A program made the position numbers and the translations under genes. The notes below the pieces were generated by a model that worked only from the letters and a program-made list of their open reading frames with translations, was not told the DNA's origin and searched no databases. From positions 228,904-292,903 of the forward strand of contig JACKNC010000003.1 of NCBI GenBank assembly GCA_024235095.1: a stretch of 64,000 bases of DNA. Reading direction: 5' to 3'. Below, piece after piece: positions 28,530 to 55,431 of the stretch (positions within the stretch are counted from its first letter, which is position 1; each line of letters begins with the position of its first letter). Source of the stretch: Gammaproteobacteria bacterium (lineage in GTDB: Bacteria; Pseudomonadota; Gammaproteobacteria; Competibacterales; Competibacteraceae).

Positions 28530-28534
28530 GGTGC

Positions 28535-28920: not shown

Positions 28921-28934
28921 CACATATTTATGTG
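28921..28934. promoter_or_regulatory. Perfect palindrome CACATATTTATGTG in the antitoxin promoter region (possible autoregulatory operator)
   Basis: It lies ~36-50 nt upstream of the antitoxin ATG. It overlaps TTGTCA-N16-TACACT on the - strand. Confidence 0.3.
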
Positions 28935-29574: not shown

Positions 29575-29886
29575 GGGTAGTTTTGCACAACGCCCCGAAA
29601 AGGAGCATTCCAACAAAGTTGCAAAAACCTCTTGCCATTCCCATAGGTTTTGAAAGTGGTTTATGAAAGTATTTAGTGTTTGTTTTGTAAGTGATATGTA
29701 AAATCTTGCGAAAATGTCCGTTTTTGAAAGCTGAACACTTACAAGGGTTCTGGTTTAACTTCTTTGCAGTATGATTTATAAGAGAGAATTTATCCTTAAA
29801 TAAATCTACAATTCAATATTTTGGTTTATTTGCCCGTCGGCTCTCAAGTTTTGAAATACACCTTTTCGGGGCGTTGTGCAAAAACA
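29575..29886 (-). mobile_element. MITE copy 2 (inverted relative to copy 1); its last 10 nt lie at 31192-31201 beyond the IS1 insertion
   Basis: Colinear with the reverse complement of 11477-11791. The terminal AATAACACCC after the IS1 element matches the MITE end AAAAACACCC. Confidence 0.8.
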
Positions 29887-37170: not shown

Positions 37171-37171
37171 G
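35997..37171 (+). CDS. IS630-family transposase (-1 frameshift required)
   Basis: ORF translations are identical to copy 1. Confidence 0.8.
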
Positions 37172-37176
37172 ACCAG

Positions 37177-39548: not shown

Positions 39549-40106
39549 ATGACTGAACTTTATATCAGCACGGATGTTGAAACCGATGGCCCGATTCCTG
39601 GGCCGCATTCCTTATTGAGCCTGGGTTCAGCCGCCTATACCGCTGATAAGCAGCTTATCGCTACGTTTAGCGCCAACCTGGAAACCCTCCCTGGGGCCAC
39701 GGCGCATCCGAAAACAGCCGCTTGGTGGGCCACTCAGCCTGCGGCCTGGGATGCCTGTCGTCAGAATCTTGAACCGCCGGAGGTGGCTTTGCAGCGCTAT
39801 GTCCAGTGGCTGCGCGCCTTGCCAGGGCGTCCGGTGTTTGTAGCCTATCCAGCCGGCTTTGATTTCCTCTTTGTTTATTGGTATCTCATGCGATTTGTGG
39901 GCGAAAGTCCCTTTAGTCACTCGGCATTGGATATGAAATCCTTTGCGATGGCGCTCTTGAAAACCGATTATTGCAAAAGTACGAAGCGCCACATGCCCGC
40001 GCGCTGGTTCGATCCTTTGCCTCATACGCATATTGCCTTAGACGATGCCATTGAGCAGGGCGCGCTGTTCTGCAACATGCTGCATGAAAATCGGCACGGT
40101 GATTGA
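39549..40106 (+). CDS. DEDDh-type 3'-5' exonuclease
   Basis: Exo I 'STDVETDG', Exo II 'YPAGFDFLF', Exo III '[11 protein letters not shown]'. Confidence 0.7.
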
Positions 40107-40271: not shown

Positions 40272-41318
40272 ATGAAGACTTCTTCCCTTAAAATTACCCC
40301 TGAAATGCTTCGGTTAATTGCCGAAGTTGATGAATTCAAAGGCTCTTGGCGGGCGATGGTGGCCTTGGCTCCTGAGCGGCTGGCGGTGCTTAGGCGGGTG
40401 GCCACGATAGAAAGTATTGGCTCTTCCACGCGCATTGAGGGCGCGAAACTCTCAGATCGAGAGGTGGAAGCGCTCCTGGGACGGCTGGAGCAGACGGCCT
40501 TTGAAAGTCGGGATGAACAAGAAGTGGCCGGTTATGCTGAAGTTATGGACGCTATTTTTGAGAACTATGCCGCGATTCCCCTGACGGAGAACTACGTCAA
40601 GCAGCTTCATTCCCTTCTTCTGCGCCATGCCGTAAAAGATGAGCGGCATCGAGGGGAATATAAGAAACTCCCCAACCATGTTGAAGCCTTTGGGCCAAAC
40701 GGTGAAACCTTGGGGGTCATCTTTGCTACGGCCTCTCCCTTTGATACGCCTATGCGAATGCAGGAGCTATTGGTCTGGACGCGGGAAAGTCTGGAGGATG
40801 GTAGTCTTCATCCCCTGGTGGTGATTGGCCTTTTCATCGTGGAATTTTTGGCGATTCACCCTTTTCAAGATGGGAATGGGCGTCTGTCGCGGGTGTTGAC
40901 GACCCTGCTCTTACTTCGCTCCGGCTATGCCTATGTGCCCTTTAGCTCCCTGGAAAGCCTGGTGGAACACAGTAAGGACGGGTATTACCTGGCACTCCGG
41001 CGAACTCAAGGAACCCTAGAGCATGAATTCCCCGACTGGGAACCGTGGTTGCTGTTCTTCCTGCGCTTGCTCAAGCAGCAAAAGGACCGGTTAGCCGCCA
41101 AGATTGCGCATGAAGAGCGCTTAGAGGGTTTACATCCCGATGCGCTAGCGATTCTGGAACAGGTTCGGGCAACTGGGCGCATTACCACGAGTCAAGCTGA
41201 AAAACTCACCGGTGCACCTCGACCTACGGTCAAGGTGCGACTGGGTGAACTGGTCAAACGGGGGTTACTGATGCGACATGGACAGGGTAGGGGATCGTGG
41301 TATGGGTTAGCAGTTTAG
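40272..41318 (+). CDS. Fic-family protein with a C-terminal winged-helix domain
   Basis: Fic motif 'HPFQDGNGRLSR'. The C-terminal 'ITTSQAEKLTGAPRPTVKVRLGELVKRGLL' is HTH-like. Confidence 0.85.
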   Translation: MKTSSLKITPEMLRLIAEVDEFKGSWRAMVALAPERLAVLRRVATIESIGSSTRIEGAKLSDREVEALLGRLEQTAFESRDEQEVAGYAEVMDAIFENYAAIPLTENYVKQLHSLLLRHAVKDERHRGEYKKLPNHVEAFGPNGETLGVIFATASPFDTPMRMQELLVWTRESLEDGSLHPLVVIGLFIVEFLAIHPFQDGNGRLSRVLTTLLLLRSGYAYVPFSSLESLVEHSKDGYYLALRRTQGTLEHEFPDWEPWLLFFLRLLKQQKDRLAAKIAHEERLEGLHPDALAILEQVRATGRITTSQAEKLTGAPRPTVKVRLGELVKRGLLMRHGQGRGSWYGLAV

Positions 41319-41479: not shown

Positions 41480-44400
41480 ATGGAGCCAGGAATGTCACAA
41501 GGAAAGATTAAAGCGGGGATGACGGTGAGTGGTTCGCTTCTCCCAGAACCCATTGAGGTGTTGGCCCTGGTGCCGATGGGTACGTCGCTGAAGGTGATTG
41601 GACGGGGTACCAAGACGGGGATGACCCATACCCCGATCTTTAGCGAAGAGCAACTGAATCAATTAATTCTTTCAGCAGAACAAGAGCCTTTTGACGGGGA
41701 TGCCGCCTTGTTTCGGCTCGGGGTTGAAGCACATCGTCTCGGCCTGGCCTATGAATACGATCCCTATTTTTCGCTCTCCATTGCGCGGGTTGATCCGCTG
41801 CCTCATCAATTAGAAGCCGTTTACGACTATTTCATCCGACTGCCTCGAATTCGTTTCCTACTGGCGGATGACCCCGGCGCGGGTAAGACCATCATGGCGG
41901 GTCTGCTCCTCAAGGAATTGAAAGCGCGGGGTCTAGTGCAGCGGACCCTCATTGTGACCCCGGCCAATCTGACCTTTCAATGGCAGCGCGAACTGAAAGA
42001 CAAGTTTCGCGAGAACTTTGAAATTGTGCGGGGGGATGTCCTCCGGGCCAACTACGGCCAAAACCCCTGGCAGGAAAAATCGCAAGTGGTGACCTCTATT
42101 TCCTGGGTCTCTACGCGAGAAGATGCGAAAGCTAGTCTGCTCCGCTCTCATTGGGATCTCATCATTGTGGATGAGGCCCACAAGATGAGCGCCTATGCCA
42201 ATGATCGGAAAACCTTGGCCTACCAGTTAGGCGAAAAACTCGCGGAGATGACCGATCACTACCTGTTGATGACTGCCACGCCACATAAGGGGGACCCGGA
42301 AAACTTTTGCCGCTTTTTGGCCCTGCTGGACCGTGATGTGTACGGCAACATCCAAAGCCTGCAAAAAGCGATGCGAGAACATGAAGCCCCGTTCTACCTG
42401 CGCCGCACCAAGGAAGCCCTGGTGGGTTTTCCTGACCCGGAAACTGGCGCGGTGCATCGGCTCTTTACCAAACGGGTGGTGCATACAGCGGAATTCGAGC
42501 TGGATGGAGAGGAACTGGAGTTTTATGACCAGTTGACCGCCTACGTGGAAGATCAGTCGATGCGCGCGGCGCAAGATGACTCGCCAAGGGGTCGGGCGGT
42601 CGGCTTCACGATGGCGATGCTGCAACGGCGTATGGCTTCAACCCTTTATGCCGCGCGCCGGACCCTGGAGCGCATGAAAGAGCGACGGGAAAAGATTCTG
42701 GCAGACCCAGACGCCTACCGTCAGGAGCAAATCACCAAGCGTTTGCCCGATGATTTCGAGGATCTCACCGAAGAAGAACAACAAGAGATCGTGGCAGCAC
42801 TGGAAGATGTGGTGGCCTCGGTCGATCCCACTATCCTCCGAGAAGAAATTGCCCGTTTGACCCAGTTGATTGATCAGGCTCGCCCCTTAGAGAAGCGCGA
42901 GATTGAATCCAAGCTCACCAAACTGAAGCAAGTCTTGAACGAGCAAGGGTTCTTTGCCGATCCGAGTAAGAAACTCCTCATTTTTACTGAACACAAAGAT
43001 TCCCTCGATTACCTCGCCGGAGATGGCAAGGAAAACCGGCCTTATGGCAAGTTGCTGGAATGGGGTCTGACCGTGACGCAAATTCACGGGGGGATGAAGA
43101 TCGGGGATCGTGATACGCCGGGATCGCGCATTTATGCCGAACGCGAATTTCGGGAACAGGCCCAGATTCTGGTAGCGACGGAAGCGGCGGGCGAAGGCAT
43201 CAACCTGCAATTCTGCTCGCGGATGATTAATTATGACATTCCCTGGAACCCGATTCGCCTGGAACAGCGCGTGGGGCGAATTCACCGTTACGGCCAAGAG
43301 TACGATTGTCTGATTTTCAACTTTGTTGCCAAAAACACCCGCGAAGGTCGCGTTCTGCAAATGCTCCTGGAACGTCTCAAGGAAATCCGTCGAGAATTGG
43401 GCACGGATCAGGTTTTTGATGTCGTTGGCGAAGTTTTTCCGGCCAATTTACTGGATAAATTGTTTCGCGATTTGTATGCGCGGCGCACCAATGAAAGTGC
43501 GGTCACCGATCGCATTGTGCGAGATGTTGATCCGAAACGCTTCCGGGCGATTACCGAATCGGCACTGGAGGGGCTGGCCAAGAAAGACCTCAATCTCTCG
43601 GCGATTGTGGGCCGCTCGGTGGAAGCGCGTGAGCGCCGCCTGGTGCCCGAAGCCATTGAACAATTTTTTGTGCAAGCCGGGCCGGTGGTCGGGATGCGGT
43701 CCAAGCCGACAGCGGCAGAAAGCCACATCTACCGGATTGGCAAGGTGCCCCGGTTCCTGGTTCAGCGCGGCGATGCTCTGGAACCGCGCTTTGGTCGCTT
43801 GGGGCGGGAGTACAAGCTGATTAGCTTTGATAAGGCGCTGCTCAAGCGCGATCCGACCTTGGAATGGGTTACACCTGGTCACCCGCTCTTTGAAGTGGTG
43901 CGGGAAGCGTCCTTGGAGCAAGTGGAAGGCCACTTAAAGCGTGGCGCGGTGTTTTTCGATATTCAACGCCGGGAACCCGGTTTCCTCGACCTGTTTGCCG
44001 CTTCCATCAAGGATGGGCGCGGGAATACCCTCCATCGCCGGTTATTTGTCATGGAAACGGAACAAAGCGGGTCGATGGCGATCCGGCAACCCACCGTATT
44101 TCTCGACATTAACCCGGCCCCGGCGGAAACCTCGGTGCTGGAACCCGAGACGGTCCCGGCCCGGAGTCTGGCGGAAGGCTATCTCTATGAGCACGCGCTC
44201 AAACCCTGGCTGGAGGACAACGCCACAGAGCGGGCGCGTGAAATAGTCCGAGTTGCCCAGCATGTGGAAATCAGCCTGCACGCCTTAATTGACCGCCAGA
44301 ACGAACAACTGGCCGATTACCTTAACCGGCAAATCGAAGGGCAAACCGGCTTGGAGGGGATTATCGCCCAAGCGGAACAACATCTGGATGACTTGAACAA

Positions 44401-44917
44401 CCGTCTGGAAACCCGGCGCAAGGAACTGGAGATGGAACGCCACTGCACGGTAGCGGACATTGTTCACCTGGGCCGGGCGCGGGTGATCCCTCACCCGGAA
44501 CGGCAAAGCCCACAAATTGCGCCGATGGTGCGGGATGACGAAGTCGAGCGGATTGCCGTCGATACCGTCCGGGCCTATGAGGAAGCGCGGGGCTGCGTGG
44601 TAGAAAGCGTGGAAGCCGACAATCGGGGCTTTGATCTCATCTCGCGCAAACCGCATCCCGAAGATCCCAAGAGCTTTATCGAAGTGCGTTTCATTGAAGT
44701 CAAAGGCCGGGCCGGAGTCGGGGAGATCTTCCTCAGCGCCAATGAATATCGGGCGGCGGAACGATTAAAAGGCGATTACTGGCTTTATGCGGTGTTCAAC
44801 TGTGTTTCCAAGCCCGAACTCCATCCCTATCAAAACCCGGCGCAACTCGACTGGCAACCGGTGACCAAGGTAGAGCATTACAAGATTAAGCCTGATTCAG
44901 TACTGGGGGTTCGATGA
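41480..44917 (+). CDS. SNF2/RAD54-family helicase fused to a C-terminal DUF3883 (restriction-endonuclease-like) domain
   Basis: 'LLADDPGAGKTIMAG' (motif I), 'IIVDEAHKMSA' (DEAH), 'ATEAAGEGINLQ', 'WNPIRLEQRVGRIHRYGQ' (motif VI). C-terminal 'GFDLISRK...IEVKGRAG...FLSANEYRAAERLKGDYWLYAVFNC'. Confidence 0.85.
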   Translation: MEPGMSQGKIKAGMTVSGSLLPEPIEVLALVPMGTSLKVIGRGTKTGMTHTPIFSEEQLNQLILSAEQEPFDGDAALFRLGVEAHRLGLAYEYDPYFSLSIARVDPLPHQLEAVYDYFIRLPRIRFLLADDPGAGKTIMAGLLLKELKARGLVQRTLIVTPANLTFQWQRELKDKFRENFEIVRGDVLRANYGQNPWQEKSQVVTSISWVSTREDAKASLLRSHWDLIIVDEAHKMSAYANDRKTLAYQLGEKLAEMTDHYLLMTATPHKGDPENFCRFLALLDRDVYGNIQSLQKAMREHEAPFYLRRTKEALVGFPDPETGAVHRLFTKRVVHTAEFELDGEELEFYDQLTAYVEDQSMRAAQDDSPRGRAVGFTMAMLQRRMASTLYAARRTLERMKERREKILADPDAYRQEQITKRLPDDFEDLTEEEQQEIVAALEDVVASVDPTILREEIARLTQLIDQARPLEKREIESKLTKLKQVLNEQGFFADPSKKLLIFTEHKDSLDYLAGDGKENRPYGKLLEWGLTVTQIHGGMKIGDRDTPGSRIYAEREFREQAQILVATEAAGEGINLQFCSRMINYDIPWNPIRLEQRVGRIHRYGQEYDCLIFNFVAKNTREGRVLQMLLERLKEIRRELGTDQVFDVVGEVFPANLLDKLFRDLYARRTNESAVTDRIVRDVDPKRFRAITESALEGLAKKDLNLSAIVGRSVEARERRLVPEAIEQFFVQAGPVVGMRSKPTAAESHIYRIGKVPRFLVQRGDALEPRFGRLGREYKLISFDKALLKRDPTLEWVTPGHPLFEVVREASLEQVEGHLKRGAVFFDIQRREPGFLDLFAASIKDGRGNTLHRRLFVMETEQSGSMAIRQPTVFLDINPAPAETSVLEPETVPARSLAEGYLYEHALKPWLEDNATERAREIVRVAQHVEISLHALIDRQNEQLADYLNRQIEGQTGLEGIIAQAEQHLDDLNNRLETRRKELEMERHCTVADIVHLGRARVIPHPERQSPQIAPMVRDDEVERIAVDTVRAYEEARGCVVESVEADNRGFDLISRKPHPEDPKSFIEVRFIEVKGRAGVGEIFLSANEYRAAERLKGDYWLYAVFNCVSKPELHPYQNPAQLDWQPVTKVEHYKIKPDSVLGVR

Positions 44918-46602
44918 TGGATATCGAAACCCTCAAGATACAGCTTGCTCTTGGTGAATCCGTCGAACGGGAATTCAAGTCTGATCGCCGACAGATCTCC
45001 GACAAGGAGATTTATGAAGAAGTGACCGCTATGGCCAATGCTTCCGGGGGAGTGCTGTTCATCGGTGTGGAAGATAATGGAATGGTATCAGGTGCAAAGC
45101 CCCGTCATGGGAAAATGACTGATGCTGTTAAGATGCAAGCGGCCATTTTTAACAATACCGTTCCCAGCATTAACACGCGAATCTCCTTGATTGCGCATCC
45201 CGATGGTCAGGTTATTGCTATCTCAGTTGATCCTTATCCAGAACCCTGTGCTACGACAACGGGCAAGTCGCTGCGGCGTACCCTTGGGGGTGATGGTAAA
45301 CCGCAAACCGTGGCCTACTATCCCCGCGACCATCGTTCCCGGCGCGTAGATTTGGGGCTTCTTGACTTTTCCGCTCAACCCATCCAAGGAACTGGTCTCT
45401 CTGACCTCGATCCTTTGGAATTTGAGCGGTTGCGGCAAACGATTACCCGTCTTCGGGGAGATCGTAGCTTGCTGGACCTCTCTGATGAAGATTTGGCCAA
45501 GGCGCTGAGATTGGTGGAAACCCAAGAAATCGGCCTTGTGCCTAACGTTGCTGGCCTGCTGCTGCTCGGTAGAGAAAAAGTGCTACGCGATGTCTTACCT
45601 ACCCATGAAGCACATTTTCAAGTTCTCGATAGCCAGCAACAAGTGAGAGTAAACGATACCTTTCATGGGCCATTGCTTCAAACCTTGGAGCATATAGAAG
45701 CTCGCTTTACCGCTCGAAACAACGAACAAGAGGTTGCAGTGGGCCTGTTTCGCCTGCCTGTGCCGGACTATTCCCTAATGGGCTTTCGGGAAGCTGTCAA
45801 CAATGCAGTGCTGCATCGAGACTTCAGTCAAATGCAAGCCGTGTATGTGCAGTGGCAACCCGACCATCTGCTGATTACCAATCCTGGTAGTCTCCCGTCT
45901 GGCGTGACCTTGGAAAACCTACTGGTCCATGAACCAAAGCCGCGTAATCCTCGTTTAGCAGAAGCATTTAAACGGATTGGCTTAGTGGAGCAGACGGGGC
46001 GTGGGGTAGACAAAATATTCCTAGGGCAACTGCAATACGGTCGTCCCGCACCGGACTACTCGCGTAGCGATGCCTACGGTGTGCGAGTGATTTTGCGTGG
46101 AGGGGAAGCCTCCCTTCAATTTGCAGCCTTTGTATTTGAGCAGGATAAACAAGGCCATCCTCTGACTTTGGACGATCTGCTCGTGCTGAACACGCTCTTT
46201 TTTGAGCGACAGATTGACTCGGAAACTGCCGCTAGGTTGCTCCAGAAAGAGAGTGCCAATGCGCGAGCTACTTTGGAGAGGTTGCACGAACGCGGTTTAA
46301 TTGAGCGACGGGGCAACAAGCGAGCGACTTCTTACCACCTCTCAGCCGCACTTTACCAGCGCTTTGATATGAAAGCGGAATATATTCGTGCTAAAGGATT
46401 TGGGCCAATTCAGCACGAACAGATGGTGCTCGAATATGCGCGCCAACATGGGGAGATTTCGCGCAAAAAAGCGGCTGAATTATGTCAACTTAATGTTCAT
46501 CAAGCGAGTCGGGTATTGCAACGTGTTAGCAGTAAAAATAAAGAATTGCAGTTAGTTGGAAATGGAAGGGGCGCTCGGTATGTCTGGAAACACCACAAAT
46601 AA
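44914..46602 (+). CDS. AlbA_2 (Schlafen-like divergent AAA) domain protein with C-terminal HTH domains (COG2865-type)
   Basis: 'ESVEREFKSD...EEVTAMANASGGVLFIGVEDNG' is the AlbA_2 N-terminus. 'NAVLHRDF' and 'GRGVDKIF' come later. The ATG overlaps the helicase stop (ATGA). Confidence 0.7.
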   Translation: MMDIETLKIQLALGESVEREFKSDRRQISDKEIYEEVTAMANASGGVLFIGVEDNGMVSGAKPRHGKMTDAVKMQAAIFNNTVPSINTRISLIAHPDGQVIAISVDPYPEPCATTTGKSLRRTLGGDGKPQTVAYYPRDHRSRRVDLGLLDFSAQPIQGTGLSDLDPLEFERLRQTITRLRGDRSLLDLSDEDLAKALRLVETQEIGLVPNVAGLLLLGREKVLRDVLPTHEAHFQVLDSQQQVRVNDTFHGPLLQTLEHIEARFTARNNEQEVAVGLFRLPVPDYSLMGFREAVNNAVLHRDFSQMQAVYVQWQPDHLLITNPGSLPSGVTLENLLVHEPKPRNPRLAEAFKRIGLVEQTGRGVDKIFLGQLQYGRPAPDYSRSDAYGVRVILRGGEASLQFAAFVFEQDKQGHPLTLDDLLVLNTLFFERQIDSETAARLLQKESANARATLERLHERGLIERRGNKRATSYHLSAALYQRFDMKAEYIRAKGFGPIQHEQMVLEYARQHGEISRKKAAELCQLNVHQASRVLQRVSSKNKELQLVGNGRGARYVWKHHK

Positions 46603-46683
46603 ACGCACGCGCTCGTTTGTATTTATTGTAGAAACGCGCGCGCTCGTTTATGCGCTCGTTTCCCAAATATCAGTGAGATCAGT

Positions 46684-49600
46684 ATGGATACTTTAGCCTA
46701 CCCCAAGCGCTTGATAGAAGTGGATTTGCCGATAGCAAGAATTTCGGCCCATGCGCGGCGGGAGAAATCCATTCGACATGGCCATATTTCGACCTTGCAT
46801 ATCTGGTGGGCCAGACGGCCACTGGCGGCCTGTCGGGCGGTGATCTGCGCCTCGCTCTGGCCTGATCCGGTGGATTTGAGCACCTGGGCTAAGCGGGGTG
46901 ATGAGGTTCCGGTAGGGGATGGTTCGGTGATAATCCGGCCTAGGCGGTTTTTGGATACCGCGCGGGAGCGGATGCTGGCCTGGGGAAAAGAACATCTTGG
47001 CAAGGTCAGTCGAGAGTCCTCCTCGCGCTTTATTGCCATTCAGAAGGGCAATAATATCCTTGCTGATCCCTGGGATTTGCAAAGAACGTTGCTGGATTTC
47101 ATCGCTGACTTTGCCAACTGGGATAATTCGACGGACAAGGATTACCTGGAAACCGCCCGCGTATTGACCCAAGCCGCGCATGAAGCCCTGGGCGGGGAAC
47201 TGGAGACGCGCCCGCTGGTGGTCGATCCGTTTGCTGGCGGTGGTTCGATTCCGCTGGAAGCCTTGCGCGTCGGGGCGGATGCCTTCGCTTCGGATTTGAA
47301 TCCGATCCCAGTATTGCTGAACAAGGTGGTGCTGGAATACATCCCGAAGTATGGCCAACGGCTTGCCGATGAAGTCCGCAAGTGGGGGGCCTGGATCAAG
47401 CAGGAAGCGGAGAAAGAGCTTGCGGAGTTTTACCCGAAAGACCCGGATGGAGCCACGCCAATTGCCTATCTTTGGGCGCGAACCATTCAGTGTGAAGGGC
47501 CGGGGTGTGGGGCGGAAGTGCCGTTGATGCGGTCGCTCTGGTTGGCGAAAAAGGGCAAACGTTCGGTGGCGTTGCGCATCGTCCCCAAACCTCAAGAAAA
47601 GCGGGTTGACTTTGAAATTATCGAGAATGCTAAAACCGGTGAAGAAAGACTGGGAACGGTCAAGCGTGGGTCGGCAACGTGTCCTTGCTGTGGATATACA
47701 ACGCCGGTGGCAAATGTTCGGAAGCAATTTAGGGCTAGGTGCGGCGGCACTAATGATGCACGTTTTTTGTGTGTAATATCTACTAAAAAGGGTGAACAAG
47801 GGCGTTTCTATAGAGTTCCCAATTCAAAGGATGAATCTGCTGCCTTTGGTGCTAAAGCTGAGTTAGAACGAATTAAAAATAAGCATAAAGGAACAATAAG
47901 TCTATTACCTGATGAAAAGATTGATATCCGAGGTATACGTCATACTTGGGCTATGATTTATGGTATCAATAATTGGAGTCATTGCTTCACTTCTCGACAA
48001 GCACTTGTGTTAGTAAAACTTTTTGATTTATCTGCTGCATATGAAAGATTAACAAATAATGAAAAACAAGAAACCCTATTGAAAGCAGCACAAACATGTA
48101 TAGCCCTTATTATTGATAAATTAGCACAATATAATTCGTCAATGTGCCGATGGAAAGCTAGTGGAGAGAATATTGTTGATACTTTTGGTCGGCAAGCGTT
48201 ACCAATGGTTTGGGATTTTGCTGAAGCAAACCCATTTGCTGGTGCCAGCGGTGATTTTTTAAATTTACTTGATTGGCATACAAATGCACTTGTCATTACT
48301 TCAAGCGCTATTCAAGGGCAAGTAGCATCTGTTGGTTCAACATCAGCAACCGTGCATCCGTATCCCGATGATTCTATAAGTGCATTTATAACAGATCCTC
48401 CATACTATGATTCAGTGCCTTACGCTTATCTTTCTGATTTTTTTTATGTTTGGCTTCGTAGAGCACTAAACCACATTTATACTCCAATAATGATGCATCC
48501 ACTTGTCCCAAAAGATGCTGAAATAGTTGTTGATAGACCCCATGAGCTAAGTAACTCAACGCATAATATAGCTTATTACGAGGGTGAACTAACTAAAGCT
48601 TTTAAAGAAGGCTGCCGCATAGTTCGCCATGATGGTATTGGTGTTATTGTCTTTGCCAGCAAAACAACTTCAAGTTGGGAAGCGATTTTGAAGGCGGTTG
48701 TGGATGCTGGTTGGACTATCACGGGTTCTTGGCCGATTGATACGGAAATGGAAACCCGCGTTGCCGCGCAAGGACAAGCGCGACTAGCGTCTTCTGTCCA
48801 TCTGATTGTTCGTCCACGATCTGAACAAAATATCGGCGATTGGCGCGATGTACTCACCGAACTTCCCCAGCGTATCCATGCTTGGATGCCGCGCCTCGCT
48901 GACGAAGGCGTGGTCGGCGCTGATGCAATTTTTGCCTGTCTCGGCCCCGCTCTCGAAGTGTTCAGCCGCTACAGCCGGGTAGAAAAATCCAGCGGGGAAG
49001 CGGTGACCCTCGGTGAATATCTCGAACACGTCTGGGCTGCCGTCTCCAAAGAAGCCCTCTCGATGATCTTCAAAGACCCGGATACGGCTGGCCTGGAACC
49101 GGATGCTCGGCTGACCGCCATGTGGCTTTGGACCTTGGGCGCAAATAACAGCGGTGCCGGTGCTGAGGAATCCGAACAATCTGAAGATGATGAGGCCGAT
49201 GAGGAATCCAGTAAAGCGCCGAAAGTAACCGGCTTTACCCTGGAATTCGATGCCGCCCGCAAGATTGCCCAAGGTCTTGGTGTCCATCTGGAAAAATCGC
49301 CCTCGGTCGTGGAAGTGAAAGGCGATAAAGCCAAGTTGCTCTCAGTTGCGGAACGGGTCAAGTATCTTTTCGGCAAGGAGGCGGAAACCGCTGTTACCGG
49401 CAAAACCCCGCGCAAGAAGAAAAAAGAACCTGTCCAGCAATCCCTGTTTGCCGAATTAGAAGCCGCCGAATCGGCTGCGGAAGCCGAATGGGGCGATGTG
49501 AAAGGCCCCAAACCCGGAACCACGGTCTTGGATCGCCTGCATCAAGCGATGGTGTTGTTTGCCGCTGGGCGTGGGGAAGCGATGAAACGCTTCATCGTGG

Positions 49601-49731
49601 AAGAAGGGATTGGCAACGATGCCCGCTTCTGGAAACTTGCACAATCGCTGACGGCGCTCTATCCGGTGGGTAGCGATGAAAAGCGGTGGGTGGATGGCGT
49701 CTTAGCCCGTAAAAAAGGATTAGGTTTTTAA
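46684..49731 (+). CDS. DUF1156-family DNA methyltransferase (N6-A/N4-C type, COG1743-like) with a Zn-ribbon
   Basis: '[38 protein letters not shown]' (DUF1156), '[14 protein letters not shown]' (motif I), 'CEGPGCG...CPCCGY' (Zn ribbon), '[12 protein letters not shown]' (motif IV). Confidence 0.85.
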   Translation: [1015 protein letters not shown]

Positions 49732-49744
49732 GGAGATAAAAACA

Positions 49745-52705
49745 ATGAGCAATCTCAAGCCCTGGTATCAAGTCGTCGTTCCGCGTGAAGATTTACGCGA
49801 TAATCGCCCACTGGATGCCTCCGAATTTGCCGTCCACCTCGATCATATCCGCGAACACCGCGCCCATCCCGATTATATCGATCCCGCGCGGTTCTTCTCC
49901 CGAACCTACCTGACCCAAAGCCTGCTCGATCTCTCCTCGCAAGTAGTGCGTCGTCTCTCCGGCATCAAGGTGGAAACCTCCGCCGTGTTTAACATGGCGA
50001 CGCAGTTTGGCGGGGGCAAAACTCACTCTTTGACCGCGCTCTACCATCTCGCCCAAGGTGGCCCTGCGGCACAGAACTGGAAAGGTGTGGACAGCATCCT
50101 CAACCGGGCGCAAGTGAAAGAGATTCCGCAAGCAGCGGTCGCGGTTTTTGTCGGCACAGAGTTTGATGTGGTAGAGGGCAGGAAAGGAGAAGGACAACCG
50201 CAGCGAAAAACCCCTTGGGGAGAGATCGCTTGGCAGCTTGGCGGTGAGGAAACCTTTGCCGCTGTCGCCCAGCATGATGAACAGGGTATTGCTCCAGCCG
50301 GAGACGTGCTGCGCCGCATGTTGCCGGGTGGCCCCACGCTGATTCTCCTTGATGAGTTAATGAACTACGCTTCGCGCTCGCGCCGCACTGGCCTAGCCTC
50401 ACAACTCTATGATTTCCTCCAGAACCTCTCCGAAGAAGCCCGTGCCCGCGATAACCTGGTGCTCTGTGTTTCGATTCCAGGATCAACCCAATTGGAGATG
50501 AACCCTGAAGATCAACAAAGCTATGAGTCCTACAAAAAATTGCTGGATCGGGTGGGCAAGGCCATCAGCATGTCCTCGGAAACCGAAGTGACAGAAATCA
50601 TTCGCCGCCGCCTCTTCGACTGGTATGGGTTACCCGCCGATGGAAAAAAAGTGGCAGCAGAATACGGAGCCTGGGTCCAGGATCATCCCACAGAATTAGC
50701 GAATCTAGGTGGAGAATCCCCGGAAGAACTCTTCCTGGCCTGCTATCCCTTTCACCCTTCCTTGATTTCCGTTTTTCAGCGCAAATGGCAAAGCCTGCCG
50801 CGCTTTCAACGAACTCGGGGCATTCTTCGTCTGCTTGCCCTCTGGATTGCACGGTCCTACCAGGAAGAACACCGCAAGAATTCACGGGAACCGCTCATCA
50901 CGCTCGGTTCTGCGCCACTCGATGACCAAACTTTCCGGGATGCCTTGTTTGAACAACTGGGTTCCGATCAACTCTCGATTCCGGTCACTACGGATATTCT
51001 TGGAAAGAAAGATGCTCACGCCCTTCGTCTTGACCGGGAAGCCATTGACGCGATCAAGAAAGCCCGCCTCCATCAGCGCGTGGCCACGACCATTTTCTTC
51101 GAGAGTAACGGCGGGCAAAGCCAAACCCGCATGGAAGCGACCGTTCCTGAAATCCGGGCAGCGGTCGGCCATACCGATCTAAATCTGGCCGATGTGGAAA
51201 CCGTGTTAGAGGGCCTCACCGCCAACTGTTTTTACCTCAATTGGGATCGCAACCGTTACCGGTTCGGTCTGCGTCCCAACCTCAATCAAATGCTGGTCAC
51301 GCGCCGGGGAACGGTGAAGGATCAGGACATTGAGGCCCGTATTCAGCAAACCACATTGGATTTGGTCAAATCTGGCAGTAAAGCCGTGGATCGGCGTTGT
51401 TTTCCAACCCGGTCAAATGATATTCCTGACCGTCCCCAACTGACCCTGGTGGTCTTGGGCTTAGCGCATCCCGCGCAAGACCCAGCAACCCAGAATTTCA
51501 TGGAAACCCTTTTGCGAGAGTGTGGTACCGCAGGACGCACCTATAAATCAGGCTTGCTGTTTATCGCTCCCGATCAGGGCGGGGCGGTCATCGAAGCGGC
51601 GCGCAACGTGCTGGCTTGGGAAGATATCGAAGCGGATGAAGACACCGCCCGACAACTGGAAGAAGCCCAGCGCCGTTCTCTCGGTCAAAGCCTGGACCGC
51701 GCCAAGGCGGATCTGAAGGAATCTCTCTGGCGGGCTTATCGCCATGTGTTTCTGCTCAGCAAAGACAACACGCTCAAAAACCTTGACCTGGGGCAAATCA
51801 CCTCCAGCATGGCCCATTCAATCTGCGATCTGGTAGTCAATCAACTTGTCAAGGACGATGAGATTACGGCTATCGTAGGACCCAATAAGCTGGTGCGGCT
51901 CTGGCCGCCCGCGCTGACTGAATGGTCCACGAAAGCGGTACGGGATGCCTTTTTTGCTTCACCAGCCTTACCTCGCTTGCTCGATCCTAACTCCATCAGG
52001 CGCACGATTGCCGATGGCGTCACTTCCAAGCTGTTTGGTTACGCCAGCCGAGATGCCTCGGGTCAACTCCAACTGGATTGTTTTGGTGAAAGTCTCTCGG
52101 AACAGGAAGTGGAGATCAGTGATGATCTCTTTATTCTGCGTGCTCAAGATGCCGAACGACTCATCGAACCGCCGCACTTGTATAGGCTGGTCCTTCAACC
52201 GAGTGCAATTGACGTTAGCCCTGGTGAGCACATCACCTTCAAGGTCAGTGGTGTTGACCAATACGGCCAAAGCTTCCCGGTGGAAAACGCAACCTGGTCA
52301 GCTCCCGAATGCACGGTAAATAACGAGGGCAGCTTTCAGGCGAATAGCGCGCCGGGTCTCTACTTGGTGACCGTGCAGGTGGATAACCTCCAAGCGGAGG
52401 CCAAGGTACGGGTTAAGCCGCCGATCATCTCGACACCTGTTCCACCTAGAGAAGAACACCAAACCGCCGAAGAAGAACATCCACCTGGCTATAGTGAACA
52501 AAAAATACGATGGAGTGGAACCATTCCACCCCGGAAATGGATGAACTTTTACACCAAGGTCATCGCAAAGCTCGCGAACTCGCCGGGATTGACCGTACAG
52601 GTCAGCCTAGAAGCATCAGCAGAAGGAGACAGTGCTTCGGCGAAGATTGAGGATATAAAGAGTGCTCTGAAGGAGTTGGGGTTGGACGAGAGTGTAAATG
52701 GATGA
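49745..52705 (+). CDS. DUF499-family P-loop ATPase (BrxC/PglY-like) with a C-terminal Ig-like region
   Basis: AGGAG lies upstream of the ATG. 'KPWYQVVVPREDLRDNRPLDASEFAVHLDHI...FFSRTYLTQSL...FGGGKTHSLTALYHL', 'LILLDELMNY'. Confidence 0.85.
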   Translation: MSNLKPWYQVVVPREDLRDNRPLDASEFAVHLDHIREHRAHPDYIDPARFFSRTYLTQSLLDLSSQVVRRLSGIKVETSAVFNMATQFGGGKTHSLTALYHLAQGGPAAQNWKGVDSILNRAQVKEIPQAAVAVFVGTEFDVVEGRKGEGQPQRKTPWGEIAWQLGGEETFAAVAQHDEQGIAPAGDVLRRMLPGGPTLILLDELMNYASRSRRTGLASQLYDFLQNLSEEARARDNLVLCVSIPGSTQLEMNPEDQQSYESYKKLLDRVGKAISMSSETEVTEIIRRRLFDWYGLPADGKKVAAEYGAWVQDHPTELANLGGESPEELFLACYPFHPSLISVFQRKWQSLPRFQRTRGILRLLALWIARSYQEEHRKNSREPLITLGSAPLDDQTFRDALFEQLGSDQLSIPVTTDILGKKDAHALRLDREAIDAIKKARLHQRVATTIFFESNGGQSQTRMEATVPEIRAAVGHTDLNLADVETVLEGLTANCFYLNWDRNRYRFGLRPNLNQMLVTRRGTVKDQDIEARIQQTTLDLVKSGSKAVDRRCFPTRSNDIPDRPQLTLVVLGLAHPAQDPATQNFMETLLRECGTAGRTYKSGLLFIAPDQGGAVIEAARNVLAWEDIEADEDTARQLEEAQRRSLGQSLDRAKADLKESLWRAYRHVFLLSKDNTLKNLDLGQITSSMAHSICDLVVNQLVKDDEITAIVGPNKLVRLWPPALTEWSTKAVRDAFFASPALPRLLDPNSIRRTIADGVTSKLFGYASRDASGQLQLDCFGESLSEQEVEISDDLFILRAQDAERLIEPPHLYRLVLQPSAIDVSPGEHITFKVSGVDQYGQSFPVENATWSAPECTVNNEGSFQANSAPGLYLVTVQVDNLQAEAKVRVKPPIISTPVPPREEHQTAEEEHPPGYSEQKIRWSGTIPPRKWMNFYTKVIAKLANSPGLTVQVSLEASAEGDSASAKIEDIKSALKELGLDESVNG

Positions 52706-53666
52706 TTGTTTTTGGTTTGCGCGAAATGGAGATACCCTAATAATGAGGATTTTACCGATTGAGCTGATCCCTGAAACAATGTGGAAGAAACAGGTACTTT
52801 ACTTACCTGGTGAATTAATAACCTCATATTTAGTAGAATTAAAAGATCGTGGCCTTCTTCAAGAAGCAAAGCAAGGTACAGATAGGAAAGATATTCATGG
52901 AGGTTTTAGTGATAAAGAAACATTGGAGCATTTTACTCATCGATTCGGTGTTTCATCTGGCAGATCTGAGTTTACTATACTAGCGCCAAATGAGGACCTG
53001 ACAGAATATTCTGATGCACTATTAAACACATTTTCAGAAGGGCATATTGGATTGTTAGATATTCCATGTGGAACAGGAGCATCGTGTGTAACTTTTCTCA
53101 CAGTCTTAGCTGAACTTCGGGCTAGGCGTGTATTACCAACTCTTCCATTAACAATTTCGATTGTAGGGGGCGATTGTTCAATGGCAGCAAGAGAAATATG
53201 CCAAAGTATGTTAAATAGAGCGAGGACTATCTTAGCCGATCAAGGAATTATAATCAATTACAATCTGACTCAGTGGGATGCAACTCGAAATGATGAAACT
53301 GCAAAAATGATTGATGAGTGGTTTAAGTTAGCAAGTGATGCGTGTGAGTACGTAGTATGTATTAGTAATTTTAGTGGCGCGTTAATAAAAGGAAAAATGT
53401 TTGACGATTTTACACCATGTTTGTCACAGATACTAGCGCGACTACACGATAAAAAAAGTACTTTGATATGGATCGAACCAATTAACTCAAACGCTGTAAA
53501 AGGACTAATTCCAAAGGTATTTAAATGGCTAAATAGATATGTGCCTTGGTTTTCTAACGTGCATAAAAAAGGAGAATTTCCTTCGGCAGAGTATCGAATG
53601 AGTAACCCTATTAATCAACATATACATCAAACAGGGGTTCAAGTACAACGCTTCGTGAGAGATTAA
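52698..53666 (+). CDS. Class-I SAM-methyltransferase-fold protein with a non-canonical catalytic loop (function unknown)
   Basis: 'LLDIPCGTGAS' (motif I), 'IVGGDCS', and 'VCISNFSG' in the position of (D/N)PP(Y/F). The ATG overlaps the DUF499 stop; an alternative ATG is at 52743. The gene is AT-rich. Confidence 0.55.
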   Translation: MDDCFWFARNGDTLIMRILPIELIPETMWKKQVLYLPGELITSYLVELKDRGLLQEAKQGTDRKDIHGGFSDKETLEHFTHRFGVSSGRSEFTILAPNEDLTEYSDALLNTFSEGHIGLLDIPCGTGASCVTFLTVLAELRARRVLPTLPLTISIVGGDCSMAAREICQSMLNRARTILADQGIIINYNLTQWDATRNDETAKMIDEWFKLASDACEYVVCISNFSGALIKGKMFDDFTPCLSQILARLHDKKSTLIWIEPINSNAVKGLIPKVFKWLNRYVPWFSNVHKKGEFPSAEYRMSNPINQHIHQTGVQVQRFVRD

Positions 53667-53670: not shown

Positions 53671-55431
53671 ATGTGGCCAGTCCCATCAAATATGTTGGCT
53701 ATTCGTGCTTTGCAAGCGACACGAAAGCTTCATTTGCCAACGTATGTTGCAACAAGATTTTTTGTTGACTCAATTGTTGGATATCAAGATAGTTCATGGA
53801 GCTATGTTACCATTCCCAGAAAATATCCTATGCGTAAGCAGGGTCAATTTTTAGTATCAAAGAAATTAAAGAAAATATTAGAGAATGGTTGTTGTGAATA
53901 TCGAGACTTCCTTGTGTCGAGTCCGTCTACTGCATTAACCGAGTCTCTAATACTTGCTTATCTATCACAAGAATCATCTTTTCATAAAGAAAATTATATA
54001 TATAGCTACAGATGGCCAAATAATACGGAAGAGTGTCCATATAATTTCGAGCATTATATTAATGGTTATAAATGTCGAAATAACGATATTTTAAATTTAT
54101 TATTAGATAATAGTAACAACATTGTTATTGTTTCCGATATAGAAAATTTTTATCCAAGTATAAATCAAGAAACTGTATTAAAAAAATTTAATCAAGCGCT
54201 CAAGGATACGAAAATACAAGACAGTATAAAGGTTACAGCTCTGAAATTTATCGAGCATTTATTTAATTACTATCCTGATGGTAAAGGGATTCCGATTGGC
54301 CCAGAAATTAGTCACATCCTCGCTGATTTTGCTCTGTCTACTATAGATACTACTTTGTCGGCACAATTTCCTGGTAGGTATTTTCGGTATGTTGATGATA
54401 TTGTACTCGTTGTGGACAATGACAAAAAAAATTCTGTAATAGAAATGCTAGAAAATTTAGCAAGTGATGAAGGTCTAACTATTCATCCACAGAAGACAGA
54501 TTGTCTATCCGGGAGTGAATGGTTGACCTATGGGCCACATACTCAACATCAGGTTAGAAGAAATTCATTTGAATCACTTGTTTTTTTTATAAAAGTATTC
54601 TTGTTAACCCATCGAAATAGAGAAGATGAATTAGCGACAAGTCTATTAGAAGAAGGTTTTTCTCTTCCGATTAGTCGATTAACATCCAAAAGCAGAGAAT
54701 CCAACTTTTTTGGGAACTTTAAATATCTTCTTGAAAGAAGATGGAACATTGCATGGCAAGCGTGGAAAATAAGAAAAAAAGATCTTATTAAAATGGCAAG
54801 GGAAGTGAGAAACGAAGTAAAAAGAGAATTATATGATATTCTCTTAGAAAAGCCACCTGAAAATAAAACAAGAAAAAAATGGTTTCTTCAAAGATTGAGA
54901 TACCTCACTAACAGATCAATCTATCTATTTCCGCCTAATGAATTAACTCATTTAGTTGAACATTTAAGCCCCTTTCCTGAATTTCAGGATACTATTGCTT
55001 TGATAAATCTATTAGTAAAAGATAGTTATAAAGATATATTAGGTATGCCAGGACCAGTATTAAATACTGCTGCAAGTTTACTACGGCAAGCAAATAGAAA
55101 ATTACCCCCTATCACTTTAGATAGCCACTCAGATCAAGTTATTATAGATTCAGTTAGTATCTTATTATTATTTGGAGTTGTTGACCTGCAACGTAACGCT
55201 CTTATTAAAGTTAACCAAACAACATCCGAGTTACTGCAATTTTGTGCAAATCAACCAAAATCAAGTGATATGCAACTAATACAAGATTTTTCTTATATAA
55301 ATGAAATTAGAACACTCCAATATCCACACTTACATGATAGCTATGTAAATATATTAGAAACAAGATTTTCTGATCTTGAATCCCCTGTATTAGATGCATT
55401 AGACATTGGTGGGGGTTACTTATCTTGGTAA
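53671..55431 (+). CDS. Reverse transcriptase, Abi/UG-like (stand-alone RT with a long helical C-terminal extension)
   Basis: RT motifs 'VIVSDIENFYPSI' (A), 'GIPIGPEISHILADFAL' (B), 'YFRYVDDIVLVV' (C) and 'GLTIHPQKT' (D). It starts 4 nt after the upstream gene. Confidence 0.8.
   Translation: MWPVPSNMLAIRALQATRKLHLPTYVATRFFVDSIVGYQDSSWSYVTIPRKYPMRKQGQFLVSKKLKKILENGCCEYRDFLVSSPSTALTESLILAYLSQESSFHKENYIYSYRWPNNTEECPYNFEHYINGYKCRNNDILNLLLDNSNNIVIVSDIENFYPSINQETVLKKFNQALKDTKIQDSIKVTALKFIEHLFNYYPDGKGIPIGPEISHILADFALSTIDTTLSAQFPGRYFRYVDDIVLVVDNDKKNSVIEMLENLASDEGLTIHPQKTDCLSGSEWLTYGPHTQHQVRRNSFESLVFFIKVFLLTHRNREDELATSLLEEGFSLPISRLTSKSRESNFFGNFKYLLERRWNIAWQAWKIRKKDLIKMAREVRNEVKRELYDILLEKPPENKTRKKWFLQRLRYLTNRSIYLFPPNELTHLVEHLSPFPEFQDTIALINLLVKDSYKDILGMPGPVLNTAASLLRQANRKLPPITLDSHSDQVIIDSVSILLLFGVVDLQRNALIKVNQTTSELLQFCANQPKSSDMQLIQDFSYINEIRTLQYPHLHDSYVNILETRFSDLESPVLDALDIGGGYLSW

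Follow-up and report, generated by a model that had tools for sequence, protein, structure and literature searches.

The four adjacent genes analysed here very probably (we estimate about 0.8) constitute an intact Hma locus (hmaA-hmaB-hmaC), that is, a type-1 DUF499-centred BREX-related (BR) system, with a portable Schlafen-GHKL-wHTH gene and that gene's own repeat array inserted at the hmaA|hmaB junction. The locus falls within a known family as an ordinary representative and is not a new system; the variant that it represents combines a helicase-PD-(D/E)XK fusion with an ATPase that has no HEPN domain. Hma was named in 2021 in the PADLOC study (Payne et al. 2021, PMC8565338) and was reclassified in 2026 as a "type-1 DUF499-centred BREX-related system" (Rakesh & Krishnan 2026, PMC12839542). 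In the published definition it is a widespread system of three genes.

The Hma assignment is made at profile level, through matches to the PADLOC HMM library. The HmaA, HmaB and HmaC profiles were each the top match of the respective protein (Table 1). Each hma gene occurs once, all three lie on a single strand, and one gene is embedded between hmaA and hmaB, where the Hma layout rule allows up to three between neighbours. The components that define type-1 BR systems are all present: an Snf2 protein with a C-terminal PD-(D/E)XK domain, a DUF1156 N6-methyltransferase and a DUF499 ATPase. Their catalytic motifs, like those of the embedded gene product, are intact and invariant among homologues.

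A preliminary description had read the four genes as an R-M/BREX-like core of non-canonical layout, a view that has to be corrected in part since the locus is matched as a complete HmaABC at the level of PADLOC HMMs. Its account of the genes themselves was accurate. All four ORFs lie on the plus strand at exactly the coordinates first described, encode proteins of 1145, 562, 1015 and 986 aa in that order, and are joined by a 4-nt ATGA overlap (hmaA/Schlafen gene), an 81-nt gap (Schlafen gene/hmaB) and a 13-nt gap (hmaB/hmaC); the Pfam domains and motifs were also recovered. The comparative-genomic prediction that it mentioned exists as well: Anantharaman et al. 2013 (PMC3710099) reported DUF499 AAA+ proteins in R-M operons with an SNF2 helicase-DUF3883 fusion.

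The genome is a metagenome-assembled one from the Gammaproteobacteria, and the whole locus lies within one of its defence islands. A megablast search of PLSDB plasmids with the 11.2-kb locus gave no match. Promoter and terminator counts between 39 and 56.8 kb of the window (the whole 64,000-nt stretch of DNA that was analysed) did not exceed the shuffled expectation, so operon boundaries could not be drawn from the scan.

Table 1. Features of the locus, in positions of the window
Feature	Position	Strand	Description	Evidence
hmaA	41480..44917	+	Swi2/Snf2 translocase with C-terminal PD-(D/E)XK (NOV_C/DUF3883) nuclease; effector	PADLOC HmaA 7.5e-190, residues 9-1105
NOV_C / PD-(D/E)XK nuclease domain of HmaA	44543..44824 (aa 1022-1115)	+		Pfam PF13020 3.5e-18
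Embedded cassette gene	44914..46602	+	Schlafen/AlbA_2 RNase-like domain, GHKL-type HATPase_c_4 and C-terminal wHTH; pSlfn 'HisKinase-HTH' class	
Spacer with array	46603..46683	.	Four copies of CGCGCTCGTTT/AAACGAGCGCG: 46608-46618, 46632-46642, 46639-46649, 46651-46661	
hmaB	46684..49731	+	DUF1156-type group-alpha N6-adenine DNA methyltransferase with central hypervariable target-recognition region	PADLOC HmaB 8.6e-125
hmaC	49745..52705	+	DUF499 ORC/Cdc6-clade AAA+ ATPase, BrxC-like, without N-terminal HEPN	PADLOC HmaC 3.9e-118; Pfam DUF499 8.8e-23
Big_2 Ig-like domain of HmaC	52178-52414 (aa ~812-890)	+		Foldseek Big_2/LigA-type Ig matches, E 2e-4

The embedded Schlafen gene and its repeat array

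The protein encoded at the hmaA|hmaB junction carries a Schlafen domain (Pfam SLFN_AlbA_2, 2.8e-16) and a GHKL-type ATPase domain (HATPase_c_4, 1.2e-17), and it matches PDB 3LMM at 4e-24 in an alignment reaching residue 457. At residues 414-477, the PADLOC library gave weak matches to models of regulators that contain an HTH (CasR, Csa3, CARF3). Both the E15-x4-E20-x-K22 motif and GVEDxG are invariant in 24 homologues. An Ex4(E/D)xK motif within an AlbA_2/Slfn domain, a GHKL/HisKinase-like domain and an HTH are the features of the HisKinase-HTH class of prokaryotic Schlafens. The order Ex4ExK, GHKL/HATPase_c_4, C-terminal HTH and the setting in a defence island, embedded in a BREX-related locus, agree with that class (PMC13056530). 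Also related are PDB 3LMM and the SLFN-GHKL module of SLFN-pAgo (bioRxiv 10.64898/2026.05.29.728809). HisKinase-HTH, to which the cassette of the locus belongs, is the most abundant prokaryotic Schlafen class, and its role in defence is putative. The association of Schlafens with BREX-related loci has already been published, for at least 1017 taxa (Rakesh & Krishnan 2026, PMC12839542).

The spacer that follows the gene contains four copies of a repeated word (Table 1), which make up two 18-bp imperfect palindromes and a half site (46608-46661). An analogous, locus-specific array of direct and inverted repeats lies directly 3' of the homologous Schlafen gene in 19 of 20 loci, and the array scores at about the 95th percentile against other windows of each locus. 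It also occurs in loci whose following gene is convergent or unrelated. The array is part of the Schlafen cassette and, by travelling with it, provides a concrete lead on the recognition target of the wHTH. In RNA form, it gives a hairpin fold of -29.1 kcal/mol (z -2.3). When pairs of loci were compared, those sharing array words were more alike in the C-terminal region (54% versus 46% identity) and almost equal in the N-terminal one (72% versus 69%), figures that are confounded by relatedness. Because of this confounding, a link between the repeated word and the variable C-terminal wHTH tail of the Schlafen protein is suggestive only. The available portions of two sources on prokaryotic Schlafens (PMC13056530; bioRxiv 10.64898/2026.05.29.728809) contain no mention of a 3' repeat array that we could find, and a repeat array after a Schlafen gene is possibly new.

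It is conceivable, and a possibility that we take seriously without favouring it, that the Schlafen-GHKL-wHTH protein mainly controls, by binding DNA, the transcription of the operon around it: it would bind the palindromes in the spacer and gate hmaBC, and would not be an RNase effector. The location of a locus-specific array directly 3' of the gene in nearly all loci, and here just upstream of hmaB, is consistent with such a role, as is the suggestive covariation between repeated word and wHTH tail. The same can be said of published assays in E. coli, in which HisKinase-fused Schlafens alone gave no protection; the Schlafens with demonstrated defence are DUF262 and Ig-like fusions (Perez Taboada et al., Nat Microbiol 2026, PMC13056530). 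However, the invariant Ex4ExK motif argues for retained nuclease activity, the array is present also before convergent or unrelated genes and can be read as an RNA hairpin or terminator, and binding of the array by the wHTH is itself a prediction.

Within our preferred reading, in which gene and array are a cassette inserted into an Hma locus, we tentatively raise a further idea that we hold to be rather doubtful: the Schlafen-GHKL-wHTH gene and the palindromic array may form one self-contained portable module, whose hypervariable C-terminal wHTH binds its own cognate array. If so, array binding would tie the Schlafen RNase or ATPase to the DNA of the host R-M-like operon. The cassette could then, for example, gate hmaBC expression or free the RNase upon attack on the host system. 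In the portions of the literature available to us, we found no description of a cis-element-coupled 'guard' cassette.

The Hma core proteins and a proposed mechanism

HmaA combines the Pfam domains SNF2-rel_dom, Helicase_C and NOV_C (= DUF3883). Its translation contains GAGKT at 133-137, DEAH at 231-234 and motif VI at 596-606, together with the nuclease residues E1034, D1052, E1073-x-K1075 and E1089. Across 27 homologues, K136, T137, DEAH 231-234, R597, R600, E1034, D1052, E1073, K1075 and E1089 are invariant, and the nuclease motifs GFD(1052)LIS, IE(1073)VK(1075)G and NE(1089)Y are conserved. Nicking and defence by Halomonas HmaA depend on the homologous residues D1084, E1104, K1106 and E1121, and in Halomonas meridiana HmaA was found to defend against phage T4 by means of its PD-(D/E)XK nickase (Liu et al. 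2024, PMC11232893). The restriction-type subunit of the locus is HmaA, which joins a ResIII helicase to a PD-(D/E)XK nuclease. The preliminary description had held that a restriction subunit was missing along with PglZ, BrxA, BrxB and BrxL; the latter four are indeed missing from the ORFs scanned (see below), and the restriction subunit is present.

In a fold search with the AF2 model of HmaA (mean pLDDT 66), the best PDB match was RapA, over a span of ~1100 columns, and the others were generic Snf2 and RIG-I helicases only. Residues 15-65 are modelled as a small beta-barrel (pLDDT 75-81) and residues 740-880 as an alpha/beta region; the fold search with this mediocre model gave no match confirming the TUDOR and inactive-REase domains. 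In the NCBI annotation of an identical protein, hmaA starts at M5 (41492).

HmaB matches Pfam DUF1156 (1.2e-21) and, weakly, a D12 methyltransferase model. FAGGG (183-187) and DPPY (571-574) are invariant, and 7 of 9 sequences share the Zn-ribbon cysteines C270, C275, C333 and C336. As in other type-1 BR methyltransferases, an N-terminal DUF1156 helical domain is present and the target-recognition domain lies between motifs I and IV. Over residues ~350-650, identity to relatives is 24-62% (mostly below 45%), compared with mostly 80-100% in the flanking parts. Such a hypervariable centre is what would be expected of a specificity subunit under diversifying selection. A phmmer search of PDB sequences with HmaB gave no match, nor did one with HmaC.

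HmaC contains GGGKT (89-93) and LLDE (201-204), so that Walker A and Walker B of the DUF499 AAA+ domain are both intact, as in type-1 BR ATPases. G89-G-G-K92 and D203-E204 are invariant in 28 homologues, and T93 is nearly so. Behind the Big_2 domain lies a small putative terminal alpha/beta domain; the AF2 model (mean pLDDT 71) renders residues 920-986 as two helices (pLDDT 76-83) and assigns no strands there. When the full-length model was compared with the PDB by Foldseek, Ig-like domains were the only matches, with none to BrxC or ORC, and the relation of HmaC to BrxC therefore draws on the Pfam DUF499 match and the literature. Since both AF2 models are mediocre (pLDDT 71 and 66), the predicted TUDOR domain of HmaA and RRM domain of HmaC are without firm confirmation.

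The preliminary description knew of no mechanistic account, a statement outdated by the HmaA nickase (2024), the BR classification (2026) and the mechanism of the sister type MANTIS (2026). MANTIS couples ATPase-loaded hemimethylation to helicase-nuclease restriction and needs all components for restriction (bioRxiv 10.64898/2026.09.23.753747). By analogy, it offers the best available mechanistic model for the locus. Judging from its motifs and from the homologous MtsC of MANTIS, HmaB would be an amino-methyltransferase that marks host DNA, with its variable centre setting the target. HmaC, a BrxC-like AAA+ protein, may, like MtsA, load or activate HmaB on DNA for methylation of asymmetric sites and help pass unmodified sites to the effector. 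If it works as its Halomonas homologue does, HmaA would translocate on DNA by its Snf2 motor, and its PD-(D/E)XK domain would nick or cut unmarked DNA. The Schlafen protein would stand apart from these as a second layer and most likely serve either as a back-up effector that cleaves RNA or tRNA or as a regulator; the negative E. coli assays of HisKinase fusions weigh against this part of the scheme. The NCBIfam models for MANTIS/Gao_RL score far below their cut-offs (5- to 9-fold in bits: DUF1156_antiphage 201/1000, DUF499_antiphage 136/1200, PLD protein NF042964 176/1100), and the mechanism is therefore transferred by analogy only.

A different account, unlikely in our judgement, is that HmaA alone serves as an abortive-infection-like nickase, with HmaB and HmaC dispensable or otherwise employed, and that the locus is not R-M-like. 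The HmaB recognition region is hypervariable between otherwise near-identical relatives, and homologous MANTIS needs its full set of components; both speak against this account. T4 DNA is glucosyl-hydroxymethylated, and T4 is therefore a poor test of protection by adenine methylation. Yet Halomonas HmaA by itself gave ~100-fold protection against this phage with Abi-like MOI dependence, and overexpression of Halomonas HmaB left T4 infectivity unaffected (PMC11232893). Among 1079 hmaA loci, 14.7% are without hmaB and 19.3% without hmaC, although more than 80% also have HmaB and HmaC (PMC11232893). In view of the protection by HmaA alone, the lack of effect of HmaB and the loci without hmaB or hmaC, the R-M-like coupling of HmaA, HmaB and HmaC in type 1 is something that we infer by analogy with MANTIS.

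Composition of the core and relation to other systems

The preliminary description counted four genes in the core. By comparison of loci, the conserved core consists of three genes, and the Schlafen gene is a portable cassette outside the Hma core, because it is absent from the closest hmaABC operons and its homologues occur at other junctions and beside other R-M types. The closest HmaA relatives (85-87% and 77% identity) are encoded in plain hmaABC operons in which hmaA and hmaB overlap by 4 nt. In other Hma loci, the same junction is occupied by other genes, such as those for AAA_21 ATPases. Schlafen homologues (~60-69% identity) were found in seven Hma loci, at A|B, at B|C or after B, and further homologues adjoin a type III REase, a type I HsdR and a type IIG enzyme.

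These placements, and the definition of Hma as a widespread three-gene system, make it very unlikely that the locus is a genuine four-component system in which HmaABC cannot work without the Schlafen-GHKL-wHTH protein, which might act as its sensor or regulator. Such a system would nevertheless fit the tight packing, with the ATGA overlap of the Schlafen gene onto hmaA, and the recurrence of the order A|Schlafen|B in loci L002, L012, L021 and L023, where the two proteins have diverged comparably (HmaA 63-65%, Schlafen protein 61-69%). It would also fit the GC3 of the Schlafen gene (0.485), which is similar to that of hmaB (0.472).

That the locus belongs to MADS, BREX, DISARM or MANTIS/Gao_RL is hardly credible: there is part homology (HmaA to BrxHII, 3.5e-87, and to DrmD, 2.3e-131; HmaB to PglXI, 3.7e-08; HmaB and HmaC to the Gao_RL DUF1156 and DUF499 models), but PglZ, BrxA, BrxB, BrxL, DrmA, DrmB, DrmC, DUF3780, HKD/PLD, a kinase and a specificity subunit were not found in the locus or window, and NCBIfam scores, including that for DrmD, are far under their cut-offs.

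MANTIS, also called Gao_RL or BR type-2 (Shaw et al. 2026, bioRxiv 10.64898/2026.09.23.753747), shares several parts with the locus. MtsA and MtsC are homologous to HmaC and HmaB, MtsC and HmaB share the FAGGG...DPPY group-alpha layout (in HmaB with a mosaic, hypervariable centre), and both systems are BREX-related, lack PglZ and use a helicase-nuclease effector. However, the nuclease of the MANTIS effector is an N-terminal HKD/PLD domain, and that effector lacks a C-terminal PD-(D/E)XK domain. The best-scoring match of NF042964 in HmaA is the helicase core (331-641), and Pfam gave no PLD domain. MANTIS furthermore needs MtsB (DUF3780) for methylation, and MtsB is missing from type 1; DUF3780 had no match among the ORFs in or adjoining the locus. 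We rejected MANTIS/Gao_RL for the lack of an HKD domain and of DUF3780 and for the missed equivalog cut-offs.

Consistent with the preliminary description, the locus is neither a canonical BREX nor a canonical DISARM. Its R-M/BREX-like set of methylase, DUF499 ATPase and Snf2-nuclease without PglZ was borne out by the domains, and a scan of 47 ORFs from across the window (nearly all of those of at least 150 aa included) gave no match to PglZ, BrxA, BrxB or BrxL. BREX type 3 comprises BrxC, PglXI/BrxXI, BrxHII, PglZ, BrxA and BrxF; the locus shares the BrxHII-like helicase, the PglXI-like methylase and the BrxC-like ATPase but lacks PglZ, BrxA and BrxB/F and instead has a PD-(D/E)XK nuclease fused to the helicase. 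BREX types 1-6 and BR type-3 were set aside for want of PglZ, BrxA and BrxB/iSTAND. With class 1 DISARM, the locus has in common the Snf2 helicase, homologous to DrmD by its PADLOC match; the NCBIfam DrmD equivalog scores 351 bits on HmaA against a cut-off of 610, and no DrmA, DrmB (DUF1998), DrmC or DrmMI was found. DISARM, Dpd and Zorya were rejected, as the shared Snf2 core alone matches.

MADS (Maestri et al.; bioRxiv 10.1101/2023.03.30.534895) is likewise a methylation-based, multi-gene, ATP-using defence, and an overlap with its core had been suggested in the preliminary description. PADLOC did not call the MADS operon as any known system, although Hma was already included (bioRxiv 10.1101/2023.03.30.534895), and no kinase or HsdS-like (specificity subunit) ORF occurs in the locus. 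MADS was set apart by gene content and by its authors' PADLOC result.

With other Hma/type-1 BR systems, by contrast, the locus shares the same three proteins in the same order and orientation, and an Snf2-NOV_C HmaA with the same D/ExK/E residues. An embedded gene at an hma junction is common to about two thirds of Hma loci (62.7-66.5% by the published figure); it is Schlafen-GHKL-wHTH here and Septu in Halomonas. An N-terminal HEPN domain occurs in ~56% of type-1 taxa, whereas this HmaC is without one, and its C-terminal domain is preceded by a Big_2 Ig-like domain. The Hma core itself holds no novelty: the type has a name, is on record from thousands of genomes, has been tested in part and has a mechanistic model through its sister type. 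As a clean and intact representative of type-1 BR/Hma, the locus is still of use. Close relatives with near-identical HmaB ends but a swapped recognition centre offer a natural experiment for specificity switching.

Identity of the Hma locus

All four ORFs lie on the + strand, at exactly the coordinates given in the preliminary description, and the junction spacing is likewise unchanged (an ATGA overlap, then gaps of 81 nt and 13 nt). Pfam confirmed every domain call made there (see table), and the motifs it named are present: GAGKT and DEAH in HmaA; FAGGG, DPPY and a CxxxxC...CxxC cysteine cluster (C270, C275, C333, C336) in HmaB; and GGGKT and LLDE in HmaC. The reported absence of PglZ, BrxA, BrxB and BrxL was also upheld, with no match among the 47 ORFs of the 64-kb window that were scanned.

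Features of the window (positions in nt)
Feature	Position	Strand	Size	Match or remark
IS630-family, three copies	5787-7034, 18972-20222, 35923-37173		~1.25 kb	100% identical
IS6-family (DDE_Tnp_IS240)	within 1-38000		~810 nt	at least 6 full or partial copies
ProQ/FinO gene	11713-12222
STAND/AAA_16 NTPase	22475-23722	-	415 aa
ORF run	25419-31171	-	227, 194, 133, 173, 123, 401 aa	lower-GC stretch (45-51%); no Pfam or PADLOC match
DEDDh/Rv2179c-like exonuclease	39549-40106	+	185 aa	PADLOC 'Effector, exonuclease' PDLC00753, 1e-29; upstream of hmaA
Fic/DOC protein, C-terminal HTH	40272-41318	+		SoFic 1e-45; directly upstream of hmaA
hmaA (gene 1)	41480-44917	+	1145 aa	SNF2-rel_dom, Helicase_C, NOV_C (DUF3883)
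Schlafen gene (gene 2)	44914-46602	+	562 aa	SLFN_AlbA_2, HATPase_c_4
hmaB (gene 3)	46684-49731	+	1015 aa	DUF1156
hmaC (gene 4)	49745-52705	+	986 aa	DUF499
Methylase-like ORF	52698-53666	+	322 aa	SAM-methyltransferase-like motif DIPCGTGA; 8-nt overlap with hmaC stop
Reverse transcriptase	53671-55431	+	586 aa	PADLOC RT_UG36 7e-151; after methylase-like ORF
DUF3991/Toprim protein	55566-56528	-		between RT module and QatABCD
Tyrosine integrase	57313-58305	-		between RT module and QatABCD
QatABCD operon, complete-looking	58526-63082	-		QatA KAP NTPase, PADLOC 2.5e-302; QatB-position gene (249 aa), no hits; QueC-like QatC; TatD-like QatD

The top PADLOC profile matches of the three large proteins were HmaA (7.5e-190), HmaB (8.6e-125) and HmaC (3.9e-118). 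Payne et al. 2021 (PMC8565338) named Hma (helicase, methylase, ATPase) as a candidate system and counted 1,638 instances from 26 phyla. Rakesh & Krishnan (NAR 2026, PMC12839542) find this neighbourhood already in Anantharaman et al. 2013 (PMC3710099), which bears out the DUF1156/DUF499/helicase association that the preliminary description placed in earlier comparative work. An R-M/BREX-like locus without PglZ stands, but a four-gene core does not: the system is already known and named, and its core comprises three genes. Judged by its domains, the locus matches type 1 of the Rakesh & Krishnan scheme of BREX-related (BR) systems. It encodes a Snf2 helicase with a C-terminal active-type PD-(D/E)XK domain, a DUF1156 N6-MTase and a DUF499 AAA+ ATPase, here lacking the optional N-terminal HEPN domain. 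In NCBI, an identical copy of HmaA carries a DUF3883 annotation and comes from a Gammaproteobacteria MAG.

BREX type 3 shares the helicase family (BrxHII, 3.5e-87) and the MTase family (PglXI, 3.7e-08), but its PglZ, BrxA and BrxB are absent here. BR type 2 was rejected because there is neither an HKD nuclease nor a DUF3780 gene, and BR type 3 because both PglZ and iSTAND are missing. NCBIfam equivalog models for type 2 (Gao_RL/MANTIS) proteins and for DISARM DrmD scored far below their cut-offs; only the Snf2 family is common to DISARM. The suggested overlap with MADS failed on gene content, since MADS parts are absent from the locus and PADLOC, with Hma models already included, called no known system in the MADS operon (bioRxiv 10.1101/2023.03.30.534895).

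The Schlafen gene and its repeat array

The closest relatives of HmaA are encoded in plain hmaA-hmaB-hmaC operons that lack the Schlafen gene and in which hmaA and hmaB overlap by 4 nt (HmaA identity 85-87% in loci L033, L035 and L036, and 77% in L037). In Aquisphaera giovannonii and one other genome, an AAA_21 ATPase gene occupies the slot between hmaA and hmaB instead. Schlafen-gene homologues, nearly all 60-69% identical, were recovered in 26 genomic loci from Planctomycetota, CPR bacteria, Geobacter, Bacillota and the archaeon Methanothrix; the nearest genome match is a Candidatus Competibacteraceae MAG. Seven of the 26 lie within Hma at differing junctions, namely between hmaA and hmaB (L002, L012, L021, L023), between hmaB and hmaC (L005, L007) or after hmaB (L024), and others adjoin a type III REase, a type I HsdR or a type IIG enzyme. 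This distribution, absent from the nearest relatives and found elsewhere at other junctions and with other R-M types, removes the gene from the core. Comparative sequence evidence indicates that it is an insertion, which is the behaviour published for the embedded genes of about two thirds of Hma loci. Rakesh & Krishnan (PMC12839542) place Schlafen, mini-histidine-kinase and wHTH combinations with BREX/BR loci in at least 1017 taxa.

The Schlafen protein retains the catalytic Ex4ExK motif (E15, E20, K22), invariant in 24 homologues, and matches the uncharacterised structure PDB 3LMM. By its predicted domains it belongs to the "HisKinase-HTH" class, 19.2% of prokaryotic Schlafens according to Perez Taboada et al. 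(PMC13056530). Of seven constructs tested, HisKinase fusions included, only one DUF262 and one Ig-like fusion protected; the demonstrated defensive Schlafens carry other fusions than the one in the window.

Directly after this Schlafen-GHKL-wHTH gene, the 81-nt spacer (46603-46683) contains four CGCGCTCGTTT/AAACGAGCGCG words in both orientations, which form two 18-bp imperfect palindromes and a half site. In 19 of 20 related loci (L002-L021) a comparable array is found no more than about 100 nt from the stop codon, whatever the neighbouring gene; set against other windows of its own locus, the array scores near the 95th percentile. The repeated word is locus-specific and appears to co-vary with the variable C-terminal wHTH tail. 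The array may act as the cognate operator of the wHTH or form a hairpin at the cassette end. The available sections of the two papers on Schlafens and of the survey of BREX-related systems do not mention it, and it may be the single new feature here.

Structure models and a possible R-M-like coupling

AlphaFold2 models were built for HmaC from 28 sequences (pLDDT 71) and for HmaA from 27 (pLDDT 66). In HmaC, a Big_2-type Ig-like domain (residues ~812-890, nt 52178-52414) is confidently modelled ahead of the C-terminal domain and is the only part of the model to find PDB fold matches (LigA, E 2e-4). Full-length homologues with 59% identity or more retain it; in PMC12839542, beta-sandwich domains are described mainly for type 2 DUF499 proteins. 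Neither HmaB nor HmaC has a sequence relative in the PDB. The best fold match of the HmaA model is RapA (~1100 columns), and its small N-terminal beta-barrel is compatible with, but does not prove, the published TUDOR assignment. The PD-(D/E)XK residues E1034, D1052, E1073, K1075 and E1089 of HmaA do not vary across 27 homologues.

Against its counterparts in L035 and L037, HmaB shows mostly 72-100% identity over residues 1-350 (86-100% for 151-350) and ~80-98% over 701-800, but only 24-62%, mostly below 45%, over ~350-650. HmaB is a mosaic, which suggests target-recognition-domain exchange, and the divergent centre between near-identical flanks points to HmaB as the putative specificity subunit. 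GC3 is lower in hmaB (0.47) and the Schlafen gene (0.49) than in hmaA (0.63) and hmaC (0.58).

The preliminary description knew of no mechanistic account, but work now exists on HmaA and on MANTIS. Liu et al. 2024 (PMC11232893) reported that HmaA of Halomonas meridiana protects E. coli against T4 by itself, that helicase motif VI is required, and that NOV_C is a Mn2+-dependent PD-(D/E)XK nickase whose D/ExK/E residues are also required for defence; HmaB overexpression left T4 unaffected. In MANTIS, the BR type 2 sister system (bioRxiv 10.64898/2026.09.23.753747), the DUF499 ATPase MtsA, assisted by MtsB, loads the MTase MtsC, which hemimethylates an asymmetric 6-bp site with specificity determined by its TRD. 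Restriction by the helicase-nuclease requires all components and both ATPase activities and works best on unmodified sites in inverted orientation. HmaB and MtsC share the FAGGG...DPPY group-alpha layout. By analogy, HmaB would mark self DNA, HmaC would load or activate HmaB and license HmaA, and HmaA would translocate and then nick or cut unmarked DNA. Such coupling is only plausible for type 1, because HmaA needed no partner against T4, overexpressing HmaB made no difference to that phage and type 1 lacks MtsB.

The surrounding defence island

The locus sits in a defence island. The exonuclease and Fic genes likewise precede hmaA on metagenome contigs L001 and L030. Downstream, the methylase-like ORF and UG36 RT look like a recent foreign add-on, because their GC3 (0.22-0.26) is lower than that of hma (0.47-0.63). 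UG36 RTs are predicted defence genes and are known to occur together with a separately encoded methylase. The DUF3991/Toprim and integrase genes between the RT module and QatABCD suggest that the island is, wholly or partly, an integrative element.

IS density is extreme over positions 1-38000, where IS110, IS4, IS200 and IS1 transposases and Tn3 transposase fragments accompany the IS630 and IS6 copies, and insertions truncate some genes, such as the Tn3 transposase.
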